64,000 nt of DNA from Octopus vulgaris (Eukaryota). A program made the translations under genes and the position numbers. Numbering within the stretch: the first letter of the stretch is position 1; every line of letters begins with the position of its first letter. The DNA lies in contig OX597820.1 of the NCBI GenBank assembly GCA_951406725.2, forward strand, positions 12,896,001-12,960,000, in the 5' to 3' direction. This document shows, piece after piece, positions 20,961 to 36,287 of this stretch. The notes under the pieces were generated by a model. The model had not been told where the DNA came from, made no database searches, and worked only from the letters and a program-made list of their open reading frames with translations.

Positions 20961-22099
20961 GCCAGAAGACAACGGAAAACCACTCCCGTCTTTTATCCCA
21001 AATGTAGTTATGGTAACCAATCTACTTAACGGTGGAAGCGGAGGGTAAGGACCATCGTAGGTCGTATAGAGATTGCGGGAGAAGCTTTACATGCACGTGA
21101 CCTCCCCAAGGATAGATCACCACTAGAAATCGTATCTAAGTTGTCTACAAATATATCAACCATACAAATGTATATGCAACAGAAAAGTAGTCACCAACTG
21201 ACCGGGGTACACCTAGACTTATGTTGTGTAGTGGACAGAGACAACAGAAATCTTTCGCTTTGTATATAGGATCCGGCGAAAAATTGTCATCACTAGTACT
21301 TCCAGACTTTGCCCAAGGAATGATGTAGGGCAGAATAGCGCCTTTATGACTTGTCCCAGGAACTTGTAACTGCTGATTTGAATCTTTGTCAGATCAACTT
21401 TTCTTTTAAGATTTCTAACATCAATATATTATCGAACCAATCAGGATTTGGGATAAATCTAAATGAATGCCATAAATGTGGTGTTTTATTTCTTATACTA
21501 GAAATCGATATATATTTTTTTTAACAAGGTGATTGATTGGAAAAATCCATAGAGTGACAGAGAAAATAACTAATGGTATTTACTTTCCCACTTTAATCTC
21601 TGATTTCAAATTCATACGACTTTACCCTTTCATTTCAAATTCATGCATTTGGTTCTACTGTGTGGAAATATATATTAGTTGAGTTCTGAAATATATCTAA
21701 TTGTCTTTTTTTCTTCTCTGCATTTCAAATATTCTGCCTACGTGAAAACAAAAATATTGAAGTTAAATGTTACTAAGTTCCACTTTGACTTTCATCATTG
21801 CTGGATCGATCAGGCCATTTGCATACAATTTGCATTCGTATACTTGTTTGAATTCAACATTCCTTTGTTACGTGACAATGTTTGACTCGGCAAAATTTGA
21901 ACTCAGTACGTAGCAGAACAAAGCTAAATGCTCTGAAATATTTGGTAATCTAAGACTTATAGTTTTTGTTATGTCAATTTAAACAGGTGAAAATTATACA
22001 AAATACCACTCTCTAGAATACCCCCACCCCAAATCAGACTGTAAAAAAAAACGCAATGTAGAGAGTTGCTTGATATTGTATATACTTCTTTGATAGTTA

Positions 22100-22332
22100 T
22101 CTATTTTTTACTACCCACAAGGGGCTAAACACTGAGAAGACAAACAAGGACAGACGGACGGATTAAGTCGATTACATCGACCCCAGTGCGTAACTGGTAC
22201 TTAATTTATCGACCCCGGAAGGATAAAAGGTAAAGTCGACCTCGGCGGAATTTGAAATCCGAACGTAACGGCAGACGAAATACGGCTAAGCATTTCGCCC
22301 GGCGCGCTAACGTTTCTCCCAGCTCGCCGCCA
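22100..22332 (-). mobile_element. MetaSINE family B, full length; 3' part of the tRNA-SINE chimera
   Basis: GGCGGCGAGCTGGGAGAAACGTTAGC head, Meta domain, tail TTGTGGGTAGTAAAAAATAGA. Confidence 0.9.
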
Positions 22333-22342
22333 TCGTTAACGT

Positions 22343-22414
22343 CTCCCCGGTGGGGTATCGAACCCCGGTCTCCCGCGTGACAGGCGGGGATACTTACCAT
22401 TATACTACCAAGGA
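22343..22414 (-). tRNA. tRNA-Asp (GUC), probably a retroposed copy
   Basis: 72 nt TCCTTGGTAGTATAATGGTAAGTATCCCCGCCTGTCACGCGGGAGACCGGGGTTCGATACCCCACCGGGGAG, close to canonical metazoan tRNA-Asp; acceptor stem has two G-U pairs, T stem has one C-A mismatch; no encoded CCA and no adjacent oligo-T terminator. Confidence 0.9.
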
Positions 22415-22799
22415 CCGACACTTCTTTGATAGTTAACGATGATTTGGTTTGCTCCAATAGTGTTGTTTGGGGTTCGTATTCAACTACAAGTTCTTACTTT
22501 CATTGCTGCTTTTCTAATCGCTGTTTCGATTTGTGCTCTTGCCGTATTTTAGTTGACGACTTGTTGATATATTTCTCAGTATTTTCACATAAGCGTATGA
22601 TTTATGCTCATATTCTGGTTAATATTATACTATTATCTTATGATACGTATTGTAGTTATGACACCTATCGCTGTTTATTTTTGCGGCATTTGTATACACA
22701 CTGCCATTATGTTTTAACGTATTATGTTGTTTTACAAATTTGGCAGCTCTCTTATTTTTCCTGAAAATCAACTTATTTGATGTCGTTTATCGATAATTT

Positions 22800-30402: not shown

Positions 30403-30611
30403 TATGTGAAATAGAAAGATGAATAATCTTGTAGTAGATTAATCAAAAGTTTAACCGATACCTTGGTAGCAAAAATCACAGCAGTAAACAGCACCGTTGG
30501 AGGTACAACCATATGGTGTTGCAACCGTGCGTTGGTGCGGATAATTGAAATTAAAATATTATTGGTGAATTGAAGAAATGGAGCTGAACGCAGATTGAAC
30601 AGAAATCGTTT

Positions 30612-30705
30612 TATTTCATTCTACACGTGTTTCGAAAGGCACAATTTACCAAAATCCGATTGAATAATGGGACCATATTGTGTCTTTCTCTTCAGGAAGA
30701 AAATA
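30612..30705 (-). ncRNA. Type I hammerhead ribozyme, mirror of 34749-34842
   Basis: Reverse complement of the plus-strand pLTR hammerhead. Confidence 0.8.
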
Positions 30706-31087
30706 GGAAATCCGTTGGAAAAAACAAAAACAGAACAGAGGCGGAGCAAAAACAAATCGAACTAGGCTCCTAAGAGCCCATGGCGAAACTGTTTATCAGT
30801 GTATGTTGAGAACCGGTGGCTGAAGAATTTAACGGGTCAGGCATCGGTCAATCATGTGGGTGAGGGTGTGTAGATGTTCTTTGTGACCGAGAATAAAGTT
30901 CTGACTATTTAAGGAATATTGGATGTTTTATAAGGGGCGAGAAAAATCTACTTAGAGACGTGTGTGTGTCTACTCTTCTAAATATGTGTGTGCTGGCGTA
31001 GGGGTAGAAAACATTTTTTGTGTACGTGTGTGCGTTTGATCGTTCGGCTGTCAGTGGCTACTGCAGTGAGAACCGTTGGGTGGCAGA

Positions 31088-31142
<55 letters not shown>

Positions 31143-31320
31143 ATGTGTGTGTGTGTTCATCTAAGCCTAACCTTGTCAAGGAAACCCCCCGTTGTGAAAA
31201 AACCAAGCCCCGTTTATCTTACAGGAGTAATTCCCCTTGCAGTGGTTAATCGTAGATATCTTAAAGGCTATTTCAGAATTAGTTACCAAGGGCTATGGGT
31301 GCCGGTATTATTTATAAACG

Positions 31321-32274
31321 CTATTTAAAAGCCAGATAAGTGTAACACCGCCAATGGGGACATCGAAAAGCCGACTGTAAAAGCCCGTTTACCATCCGGC
31401 CGCTGGCAAACAAAATATGGAAGAGTTCGGAGACACAAAGGTTGCACTGCCTTCTGCCCCTATCAAATGGGAGGGCCACCGATAAAATTGACCATTCCAG
31501 CCTGTAGCTTAAGTTCGTATCCTTCAGTCGCCATATTAGCTTACTGAGTCCCGTGGTCTGGCGCTTGTTTATGTCCCGAAAAGTTGCGTAATGGTTGGAG
31601 ACTCGCAAAGACAATCTTGAGGATGAGGCCCCTACATAAGTGAAGACATCTGAGTCCGTGTAAACCTTGCATTGGTAGACGGCGTTTTTGATCTTGGAGT
31701 TCGCCGACGTGAATCTTATTCTGCTAGGATTAGTTTCTGAAATTAGAACTGCGTTCCTGTCACTATATTCGTTCCGAGACCTGCAGCCGCTTACTACTCT
31801 ATTTTCCACTACGTCACTATTAACTATAGGAATAACCCCTGATTCTCCACTATCTATCAGAGTGCTGTCATTGCTAGTGCCCGTGGTGCTGCTATTGCGG
31901 GAAATGATGCTGGGGATGCTATTGGGGCTCTCTACCCTACTCCCATTGTTACCGTCAACCACAACACCCCTATTTATAACTATACCCCTAGTGGGTACTC
32001 CCTGGCTGGAGCTGAGATTATGTGTCACTGTACTGGCTCTCATATCATTATTACTACTATAATTATTCCTACTGAGCATTAAACCGGGAGCGGAAGAGGC
32101 TGTGCCTCCGGAAAAAGGTGATAGGGTCTTAGTAAGTAGCCTATTATTATGGGAGGCGATTATCTGGGCGAGGTTTTTAGTGTTGGAGAAAGCTATCCTA
32201 ACTTTATGCGAGTTAACCGTGGAGTAATATTTGGAATTTCTGGGGAAGTTATTGGCGATGGCTTGTCTAAACAT
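31321..32274 (-). CDS. C-terminal part of PLE polyprotein: linker and GIY-YIG endonuclease; open but 5'-truncated
   Basis: 317-aa ORF with NAVYQCKV...TYVGASSSRLSLRVSNHYATF...LSKLIWRLKD...WSIL...CNLCVSE, the Neptune-type GIY-YIG pattern. Confidence 0.85.
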   Translation of the reverse strand: MFRQAIANNFPRNSKYYSTVNSHKVRIAFSNTKNLAQIIASHNNRLLTKTLSPFSGGTASSAPGLMLSRNNYSSNNDMRASTVTHNLSSSQGVPTRGIVINRGVVVDGNNGSRVESPNSIPSIISRNSSTTGTSNDSTLIDSGESGVIPIVNSDVVENRVVSGCRSRNEYSDRNAVLISETNPSRIRFTSANSKIKNAVYQCKVYTDSDVFTYVGASSSRLSLRVSNHYATFRDINKRQTTGLSKLIWRLKDTNLSYRLEWSILSVALPFDRGRRQCNLCVSELFHILFASGRMVNGLLQSAFRCPHWRCYTYLAFK

Positions 32275-32382
32275 GAGGGGGAGGTTAGTTCTAATCTGCT
32301 TACCAAAGGGGATTACAAACCATATATGCTTATTCCTATCAGTGTGATGGGTCGGGACGCCAGCTCTCGCATTCGGGTGGGT

Positions 32383-34322
32383 ATTTGATGTATTTGATGA
32401 ATTTGATGTGCCTATGGGTAGCTCGGATAGTGCGCAGATAGCCGATTTGGTCGGAATATATATTCTCTACGAATTGTCCGACCAATTCCCGGAGATCGCG
32501 GGCGGCCTGTATCGTGACGATTGTCTGTTTTACCTGCAAAACACCACGAACAGAATAGTGCAGAAAACTAAGAGCAGGTTAGCTAGGTTTTTTTAATAGA
32601 ATGGGCATGAGTATAGTTTTTGATAATGAACTCACCAAGGCTAATTTCCTAGACGTTACACTTAACCTTAATAGCGACTCATACTGCCCTTACCATAAGC
32701 CTTCCTCTAATTTGAAGTATGTCAGTGTCTTCTCAAATCATGCCAAAACCGTAACAGACAATTTGGTTAAAAACATCTCTCTAAGATTGTCTGGCTTCTC
32801 CGCCAGTGCCGATATTTTTATGCAGAAAGCGGAATTTTATAACGCCGCACTATCCAAGGCCGGTTATAGGCAGAAGGTAATTTATATTGATCCGGCCCTT
32901 CCGATGCCATCATTCGGTCATCAGGATAGGGCCGTATATAATAACATTAACAATTTAAGTAAGGACGGGAGCGCGGCGGATGCCGGGTAGTCGCTCCCGC
33001 ATTTAATTTAGCGAACAAGGATAATTATCGGTCCGGGAGGTCTCACACTAACCCAAGACCCGTTATTCATCCGAGAATCACCCACCCGAATGCGAGAGCT
33101 GGCGTCCCGACCCATCACACTGATAGGAATAAGCATATATGGTTTGTAATCCCCTTTGGTAAGCAGATTAGAACTAACCTCCCCCTCATGTTTAGACAAG
33201 CCATCGCCAATAACTTCCCCAGAAATTCCAAATATTACTCCACGGTTAACTCGCATAAAGTTAGGATAGCTTTCTCCAACACTAAAAACCTCGCCCAGAT
33301 AATCGCCTCCCATAATAATAGGCTACTTACTAAGACCCTATCACCTTTTTCCGGAGGCACAGCCTCTTCCGCTCCCGGTTTAATGCTCAGTAGGAATAAT
33401 TATAGTAGTAATAATGATATGAGAGCCAGTACAGTGACACATAATCTCAGCTCCAGCCAGGAGTACCCACTAGGGGTATAGTTATAAATAGGGGTGTTGT
33501 GGTTGACGGTAACAATGGGAGTAGGGTAGAAGCCCCAATAGCATCCCCAGCATCATTTCCCGCAATAGCAGCACCACGGGCACTAGCAATGACAGCACTC
33601 TGATAGATAGTGGAGAATCAGGGGTTATTCCTATAATTAATAGTGACGTAGTGGAAAATAGAGTAGTAAGCGGCTGCAGGTCTCGGAACGAATATAGTGA
33701 CAGGAACGCAGTTCTAATTTCAGAAACTAATCCTAGCAGAATAAGATTCACGTCGGCGAACTCCAAGATCAAAAACGCCGTCTACCAATGCAAGGTTTAC
33801 ACGGACTCAGATGTCTTCACTTATGTAGGGGCCTCATCCTCAAGATTGTCTTTGCGAGTCTCCAACCATTACGCAACTTTTCGGGACATAAACAAGCGCC
33901 AGACCACGGGACTCAGTAAGCTAATATGGCGACTGAAGGATACGAACTTAAGCTACAGGCTGGAATGGTCAATTTTATCGGTGGCCCTCCCATTTGATAG
34001 GGGCAGAAGGCAGTGCAACCTTTGTGTCTCCGAACTCTTCCATATTTTGTTTGCCAGCGGCCGGATGGTAAACGGGCTTTTACAGTCGGCTTTTCGATGT
34101 CCCCATTGGCGGTGTTACACTTATCTGGCTTTTAAATAGCGTTTATAAATAATACCGGCACCCATAGCCCTTGGTAACTAATTCTGAAATAGCCTTTAAG
34201 ATATCTACGATTAACCACTGCAAGGGGAATTACTCCTGTAAGATAAACGGGGCTTGGTTTTTTCACAACGGGGGGTTTCCTTGACAAGGTTAGGCTTAGA
34301 TGAACACACACACACATAAAAC

Positions 34323-34361
<39 letters not shown>

Positions 34362-34891
34362 TTTTTCTGCCACCCAACGGTTCTCACTGCAGTAGCCACT
34401 GACAGCCGAACGATCAAACGCACACACGTACACAAAAAATGTTTTCTACTCCTACGCCAGCACACACATATTTAGAAGAGTAGACACACACACGTCTCTA
34501 AGTAGATTTTTTCTCGCCCCTTATAAAACATCCAATATTCCTTAAATAGTCAGAACTTTATTCTCGGTCACAAAGAACATCTACACACCCTCACCCACAT
34601 GATTGACCGATGCCTGACCCGTTAAATTCTTCAGCCACCGGTTCTCAACATACACTGATAAACAGTTTCGCCATGGGCTCTTAGGAGCCTAGTTCGATTT
34701 GTTTTTGCTCCGCCTCTGTTCTGTTTTTGTTTTTTCCAACGGATTTCCTATTTTCTTCCTGAAGAGAAAGACACAATATGGTCCCATTATTCAATCGGAT
34801 TTTGGTAAATTGTGCCTTTCGAAACACGTGTAGAATGAAATAAAACGATTTCTGTTCAATCTGCGTTCAGCTCCATTTCTTCAATTCACCA
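32383..34891 (+). mobile_element. 5'-truncated Neptune-clade Penelope-like retroelement (RT core/thumb, GIY-YIG, pLTR)
   Basis: FDVPMGSSDSAQIADLVGIYIL...GLYRDDCL (catalytic YRDD), ANFLDVTLNLNSDSYCPYHKP, HIWFVIPFGKQIRTNL...IIASHNNRLL, and GIY-YIG to 34139. Several frameshifts, mostly at homopolymers. Confidence 0.92.
34749..34842 (+). ncRNA. Type I hammerhead ribozyme in the PLE pLTR
   Basis: TATTTTCTTC-CTGAAGA-GAAAGACACAAT...ATTGTGCCTTTC-GAAAC-ACGT-GTA-GAATGAAATA: canonical core, 11/12-bp stem II, palindromic stem III, 9/10-bp stem I. Confidence 0.85.
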
Positions 34892-35077
34892 TGTATATAT
34901 ATATATATATAATAGTTATCGCCATACTAATATGGCATTCTTATAAAAATAAGAATAAAGCTGTCCGCTTATTAGCTCCATGAGGCCATCGCCTTAAGTT
35001 AGCTATTTGATACACAAACTGTATCCATATAACCTTTGAACAAGGGAGGTCAGTCGCTCCACACTACTTGGCCGGCA

Positions 35078-35119
35078 GCTACAGACGCGTTTCGGGGTAT
35101 TGCCCCTTTTCAATGCAGC
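35078..35119 (-). ncRNA. Hammerhead ribozyme, U3-A8 variant (inverted copy)
   Basis: Reverse complement of 35261-35302. Confidence 0.75.
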
Positions 35120-35260
35120 GTAGCCAGACCAGTAGACTAGAGAAACTTAGTAATTTTAATATTTCTATTATTGAAAACAAGTGGATGTATTCCACCGAAG
35201 CTAGGTAAATAAAACCTTTGAACAGAGATTGTCAGAAGCGACACCTACTGGTCTGGCTAC

Positions 35261-35302
35261 GCTGCATTGAAAAGGGGCAATACCCCGAAACGCGTCTGTA
35301 GC
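35261..35302 (+). ncRNA. Minimal type I hammerhead ribozyme, U3-A8 variant
   Basis: GCTGCA-TTGAAAA-GGGG(CAATA)CCCC-GAAA-CGCG-TC-TGTAGC: 6-bp stem I, 4-bp stem II, palindromic ACGCGT, GUC site. Confidence 0.8.
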
Positions 35303-36287
35303 TGCCGGCCAAGTAGTGTGGATCGACTGACCTCCCTTGTTCAAAGGTTATATGGATACAGTTTGTGTATCAAATAGCTAACTTAAGGCGATGGCCTCAT
35401 GGAGCTAATAAGCGGACAGCTTTATTCTTATTTTTATAAGAATGCCATATTAGTATGGCGATAACTATTATTCTCCGGGAACGCTGCCGTTGTTCTCTTT
35501 TAGAGAGACTTAGTAATTTTAATATTTCTATTATATATATATATATACGTAAATACCTACTTACATATGTGTGAGTCGTTATCAACAACGATAACAATCT
35601 TTATATATTGTTTAATGCGCTGTGGCAGCGAGGATCGTACTTTTGTTTCTCAGCAGAGCAAATCAGTTGCATTGTGTTAGGAATTATGCATTCTAAAAAG
35701 TCGTTAGCGATGTTAAATGCTTTGAATCACAAACTCGAAAAACGTGTATTAACGAAAGTTACTCGCGCAAAATATTTCCACTAGCGCCCCGGAGTCCACA
35801 AGACAAAAGCATAAATATATTAGTTCTCTCTATGAAATTCAGTTTCAATTTGTCCTTCTTACCTCCCTTTTTGAACTGATTTACTAAATCGACACAATAG
35901 CAAAAGCAGATGCCGTTTGAATCAACTACTTTACCTGATTATAATGTGTCTTGTTAGAAACTCACTGGAAAGTTATGGTGTGCATACATTTGCCAAGGGC
36001 ATCAGCTGCGTGCTTCAAGTATGTAATACAGAATGTATAGCCCTATGAGTTTTAACATAATGAAAATTAAGGGTGATGCGTAGCAGAAACGGGAACTCCA
36101 ACCTAAAGTAATGTATTTTGTTACATTGCTTTATGCTACAAGTAAAAATTCATTCGACATTATATTTCCCTTTCATTTCTTCAAGATCGGTATAAATAAG
36201 TAAACTTCTTTGTCACCTTGAGCCAAAGGTAGAACGTATCAAGCGTTTTGTGCATTTTGTTTTCTGTTTAATATCTCCTTTCTAAAA

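Follow-up and report, generated by a model that had tools for sequence, protein, structure and literature searches.

The window (the whole 64-kb stretch of DNA that was analysed) harbours an ordinary, decaying, single-copy fusion of a precursor tRNA-Asp with a SINE, and most of the solitary tRNA-Asp "genes" examined in the same genome are likewise retro-fusions. With their varied junctions and partners and no master copy, the small-RNA/retroelement chimeras of this genome are independent events.

On the minus strand the locus is composed, in order, of a target-site duplication, a leader, tRNA-Asp, an 11-nt spacer (22332-22342), a SINE and the duplication again. The duplicated 16-mer, ACTTCTTTGATAGTTA, is exact at 22420-22435 (minus strand), the 5' end of the insertion, and at 22084-22099 (minus strand), where its second copy lies beyond the SINE tail; at up to 2 mismatches it has 2 matches in the window as against 0.15 expected. 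With one mismatch allowed, the repeat can be lengthened to 18 nt in either direction, which leaves its boundaries uncertain by some 2 nt. Inside it follow the pre-tRNA 5' leader GTCGG (22415-22419, minus strand), whose last 3-5 nt are common to other copies with the same trailer family, and a tRNA-Asp(GTC) retrocopy without CCA (22343-22414, minus strand; ARAGORN; Rfam 49.4 bits), likely a pseudogene. The spacer comprises ACGTTAACG, the first 9 nt of a pre-tRNA-Asp 3' trailer that matches the sister copies (22334-22342, minus strand), and a junction dinucleotide AT at the SINE 5' end (22332-22333, minus strand), which is AA in most copies. The full-length tRNA-type SINE of about 231 nt, termed here SINE A, occupies 22100-22331 (minus strand); A/B box-like motifs were seen by eye in its 5' part and 8 other matches to it occur in the window. 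As the initial annotation had proposed, the two parts were retroposed as one unit, since an exact 16-nt duplication encloses both, and the tRNA part is a precursor, having leader and trailer and no CCA.

Relative to the canonical gene, the window tRNA has 4 changes in 72 (C5T, G15A, T59A, G64A; counted from the first base), and the intact tRNA gene that the initial annotation supposed to be carried along is thereby not borne out. These changes, together with two non-standard pairs and no T-run behind the tRNA, are not the make-up of a functional gene. The SINE shows 15 differences in 231 against the local majority sequence; the two rates (4/72 and 15/231, P 0.50) fit joint neutral ageing, and the window tRNA decays at the rate of the SINE, like neutral DNA. 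G15A is also present in two sister copies and in L126, which carries another trailer; it may be a source variant or a recurrent change. If a SINE had instead landed behind an existing tRNA copy, the 16-mer would be a coincidence or a constant flank. Such a case does exist at another locus, L116, with a 14-nt duplication around the SINE only. Here, however, the 16-mer encloses both parts, it was absent from every other tRNA-Asp flank inspected, and the tRNA and the SINE have aged alike, so that two separate insertions are hardly credible. An empty site did not appear in the contigs of relatives, compared over the flank on the SINE side for 4 of the 24 runs listed: one contig runs into the SINE tail and two align only to about 21975. 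Elsewhere in the window, a 1.8-kb inverted repeat (30563-32382 and 33080-34891, 99.2% identity) overlaps a 381-codon open frame (31321-32466, minus strand) and adjoins a palindromic stretch at 34909-35471.

The composition of the spacer can be deciphered from the other tRNA-Asp copies, of which 78 matches were obtained in the same genome. In clustered genes the trailers vary and end in T-runs; the trailer ACGTTAACG is common to a dispersed subset, most sister copies having a T-rich terminator after it. This trailer occurs at 13 loci including the window, joined to SINE A (2), SINE B (7) or the short element C (4), and the position in the T-run at which the partner begins varies; the count derives from two pattern searches of 11 matches each, from which two loci lacking a tRNA (L040, L052) were dropped and one with two changes (L053) was added. 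Because the same trailer recurs at 13 loci with different partners, 9 of the 11 spacer bases are attributable to the gene trailer. The window junction falls after the ninth trailer nucleotide and lacks the final T seen in 44 of 56 junctions; either the jump landed inside the trailer or the rest was deleted later. The set of 56 junctions includes five non-Asp tRNAs and counts L081 twice. Neither a 16-mer at 1 mismatch (11 matches) nor a 23-mer at 3 mismatches (11 matches) revealed an unfused source gene with the ACGTTAACG trailer, and the G15A variant led to none in 17 new loci among the matches listed (100 of 104); the gene may have been lost, have diverged or be unassembled.

A spacer of about 10 nt had been described as the reverse complement of the flank, for which no explanation was offered. 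The 10-nt inverted match between 22331-22340 and 22432-22441 (plus strand) is confirmed, and the spacer itself proved to be 11 nt long with its 9 trailer bases. Although this match is the longest among the 56 junctions, 7 of its 10 nt are dictated by the gene trailer, and matches of at least 10 nt arise in 0.28% of 3080 swapped pairs, that is, about 0.16 expected among 56. The mean longest inverted match over the class was 4.64 as against 4.50 in permuted pairs, and a flank inverted repeat as a feature of the class was rejected for want of enrichment. Folding of the whole stretch was no more favourable than that of shuffled sequences (z -1.1), and the flank repeat in the window is compatible with chance. 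At one further locus, L195, 19 nt of the window junction occur in the absence of both a tRNA and the inverted flank. Positions 1486-1540 of L195 contain a SINE A whose first 24 nt are tandemly duplicated and joined by ACGAT. Fold-back from the SINE 5' end as a source of the junction was unsupported, since the junction prefix showed no enrichment (3 occurrences, and 2 for a scrambled control).

Genome-wide, a tRNA-Asp 23-mer gave 208 matches at up to 2 mismatches, and the 100 matches listed, all of them exact, form the basis of the class counts; 51 of these lie in clusters and 49 represent 48 solitary loci, all of which were examined. A sense retroelement was situated within 45 nt of the tRNA in 39/48 solitary loci, an antisense one in 0/48 and a divergent upstream one in 1/48 (among the matches listed), with the proviso that three entries of the element library stem from tested loci (L092, L085, L055), which match by construction. 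This orientation of 39 sense to 0 antisense weighs further against separate insertions. Among the same matches, the junction fell at the element's 5' start in 31/48 solitary loci as against 16/2836 background windows, and a downstream element was present behind 3/39 clustered copies, the other 36/39 keeping clean terminators. Among the 9 solitary loci without a match in this set, 3 run into (TA)n, 2 have an element by eye and the other 4 have the appearance of ordinary genes. A repeated element D, known from two places only, is fused behind tRNA-Asp trailers in L004 and L085, and in L004 the tRNA start is also repeated directly over 24 nt. CCA at the junction was encountered in 1/56 (L128, with a SINE A partner); in a second case, L067, a mature tRNA-Asp was captured by SINE B. 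In L135, the tRNA at position 520 is a 5' tRNA-Asp half ending in the anticodon loop, followed by a short T-run and then SINE B.

The fusions extend to other small RNAs. A T-loop followed by the start of SINE A gave 20 matches at the spacing of a tRNA end as against 5 at a shifted spacing, a control that covers SINE A only. ARAGORN called a tRNA at the junction in 11/20 (His, Glu, Asp, Arg, Ser, Gly, Leu), and most of the remainder are 5'-truncated tRNAs by eye, one being a plain insertion. The corresponding search with element C yielded 21 matches, 16 of them called as tRNA. Element C (L092, L131, L143-L163) is 46 nt long, is related to the SINE B tail and has a fixed 5' start; a tRNA joined to element C is built like a minimal SINE. 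Twenty of the best 30 of 48 U6 copies were fused, 3 of them to a full SINE A. Most dispersed U6 copies (L164-L193) are joined to SINE or RTE-like ends, and L172-L176 form a clean tandem U6 array. A duplication of at least 12 nt enclosing both parts was observed at 15/26 SINE A junctions as against 1.1% of swapped pairs; 2/26 had a duplication around the SINE only and 11/26 had no enclosing duplication of 12 nt. Near 1450-1520 of L111, a tRNA-like 5' partner of SINE A with no ARAGORN call lies in a 12-nt duplication. Two occurrences, 19 kb apart, of a tRNA-Pro-like copy (L121, L122) lie near called tRNA-Pro genes, each separated from its SINE A by a 60-nt trailer.

The initial annotation had ascribed the locus to Pol III read-through from a tRNA-Asp gene without a terminator into a neighbouring SINE, the co-transcript then being retroposed. 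The window copy does have no T-run between tRNA and SINE, and at L009 and the three clustered L064 genes the terminator is immediately followed by an old element. Against this, a single trailer is combined with three different partner elements at 13 loci and is cut at different points of its T-run, 36/39 clustered copies among the matches listed have no element downstream, and U6 forms the same kind of fusion. Moreover, pattern searches of the genome returned the window junction as a single copy, so that the copies envisaged with this junction and different duplications did not appear, and a source locus free of a duplication was not seen among 11, 11 and 8 pattern matches (six 3-mismatch matches left out). 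Read-through is consequently highly improbable. Many fusions carry a trailer that is also found in clustered genes, where a clean terminator is retained and no SINE follows; one trailer takes several partners. The trailers of the tandem tRNA-Asp arrays at G000:C5:51.22-51.31 Mb (L020-L030; period 158 nt) recur in many fusions.

A dimeric tRNA-SINE master element that spread as a family could account for the seven copies sharing the ACGTTAACG trailer with SINE B and for the four sharing a tRNA-Glu trailer with SINE A. The window junction is single-copy, however, and junction points vary. The window SINE and the other SINE A copy with the ACGTTAACG trailer differ by 11.8% (averages 9.6-10.6%), and in a tree of SINE A copies, in which L134 is a fused and L116 an unfused member, fused copies interleave with plain ones and form no clade. 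Such a master element has very little probability, and the birth of a dimeric SINE, suggested earlier for this locus, is not what the locus records.

The name MetaSINE, given earlier to the SINE portion, was not confirmed either. In members of the MetaSINE superfamily, a 66-bp Meta-domain comes immediately downstream of the tRNA-derived head (PMC4824008). Three motifs drawn from two of the bivalve MetaSINE alignments supplied with that paper scored on SINE A like shuffles, 41-83% of which were as good, in a comparison made with bivalve motifs, the full consensus and the cuttlefish member lying outside it. Conversely, three of four motifs from the central region of SINE A were absent from the portion of the supplement available (PMC4824008), and the fourth occurred once in another context.

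The fusions are best understood, and were probably made, by a LINE reverse transcriptase that jumped from the 5' end of the SINE RNA onto the oligo(U) end of a Pol III precursor. Reverse transcription would be primed on the SINE tail at the target, and the enzyme would run off the 5' end of the SINE RNA. One or a few non-templated A's could then pair with the oligo(U) end of the precursor, copying would proceed through the pre-tRNA up to its leader, and closure of the insertion would leave the target-site duplication. In work on template jumping, a non-templated overhang of 1-2 nt must match the 3' end of the acceptor and the enzyme adds mostly A; this chemistry was demonstrated in vitro for R2, and the available text of the same paper doubts its need in vivo (PMC8857657). 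An inverted fold-back duplication of the 5' part of the tRNA was found in 3/121 copies, and 5' truncations were also seen; the tRNA part was therefore reverse transcribed. The fold-backs are those of L038/L044, L054 and L081, the last mirroring a whole tRNA-SINE B fusion. The initial annotation took the leader and the missing CCA as arguments against template switching onto a mature tRNA; they do exclude that acceptor, but they leave a switch onto a pre-tRNA open.

The main rival to a template jump is ligation of pre-tRNA and SINE RNA as RNAs by an RtcB-like activity, the fusion then being retroposed via the SINE tail, and sequence alone cannot separate the two. The SINE's own start, as a Pol III RNA, would carry a 5' triphosphate, and the U-tails of pre-tRNAs normally end in 3'-OH. 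RtcB does not ligate a 5' triphosphate and needs a cyclic-phosphate 3' end and a 5'-OH (PMC6789731). Because the 5' triphosphate blocks RtcB, ligation would be improbable for full-length SINE partners and not for fragments; among the matches listed, 31/48 partners begin at the element's 5' start, with a triphosphate expected for SINE A and SINE B. In favour of ligation, it has been demonstrated for U6/L1 in human cells (PMC6789731), U6 makes the same fusions in this genome, some partners are 3' fragments that possibly had a 5'-OH, and L135 uses a tRNA half cut in the anticodon loop. Overall, ligation appears unlikely and the template jump is the preferred reading.

It is also conceivable, though doubtful, that pre-tRNA capture is routine and works both ways, making proto-SINEs from a tRNA head and the 46-nt element C and having founded working tRNA genes. 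L064 (three clustered copies at G000:C3:23.94 Mb), L009 and L058 have 0 changes in 72 and terminators, and the partner at their usual junction is 11-25% diverged. Their appearance would fit precursors that were retroposed together with a terminator of their own, preserved by selection and later duplicated. Alternatively, an element may have been inserted behind existing genes. The partners of L064 and L058 are short (35-45 nt). In L082, a tRNA-Asp without a mismatch in the aligned part likewise has a partner 11-25% diverged at the usual junction. In 34 fusions with long partners the tRNAs are 4.1% and the partners 6.5% diverged, a gap that is not evidence because the search favoured well-kept tRNAs.

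Chimeras of a related kind are known from several systems. In platypus (L2, Mon-1) and anole (L1, L2, RTE, AnolisSINE2), U6-SINE and U6-LINE chimeric retrocopies were described and template switching was proposed (PMC4476161). As there, an oligo(U)-ended Pol III RNA is fused in sense to a SINE or LINE inside one duplication; unlike those chimeras, as far as the accessible text of PMC4476161 goes, most of the 5' partners here are pre-tRNAs that retain leader and trailer; they come from 7 or more isotypes, are often full length and meet the SINE at its own start. Human tRNA/LINE-1 chimeras comprise 21 loci, mostly antisense tRNA halves attributed to twin priming (PMC13174262). They resemble the present fusions in that tRNA and retroelement were inserted in one event with a duplication, and differ, judging from the available part of that paper, in that here sense precursors are involved and make up most of the solitary tRNA-Asp copies examined. 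The U6/L1 chimeras made by RtcB are similar in end product, with 5'-truncated L1 as partners in the published portion at hand and full-length SINEs here (PMC6789731). Mammalian pre-tRNA retropseudogenes also had a nuclear precursor tRNA as template and were mobilised by L1 (Schmitz 2004, as cited in PMC4476161), in that account without a SINE partner. A literature search turned up no description of such sense pre-tRNA-SINE fusions as a group of their own; subscription papers and supplements may contain one.

For the tRNA-Asp head of PittSINE (PMC5729268) and the heads of MetaSINEs (PMC4824008), acquisition by template switch has been proposed, and dimeric tRNA SINEs exist as well (as cited in PMC4758252). 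In all of these, joining of a tRNA head by reverse transcriptase is the proposed founding event, as in the present fusions; in the parts of these sources available, they are amplified families whose founding step was inferred, whereas here one-off products occur in numbers and no amplified one was seen. Acquisition of a SINE head is usually inferred from finished families, and the one-off products in this genome make the step countable. Its rules become readable: precursors far outnumber mature tRNAs (2 CCA junctions), there is a preference for RNAs ending in U, and several tails are involved. Solitary tRNA-Asp retro-fusions would inflate tRNA gene counts, and the fusions illustrate a route by which new SINEs could acquire tRNA heads.
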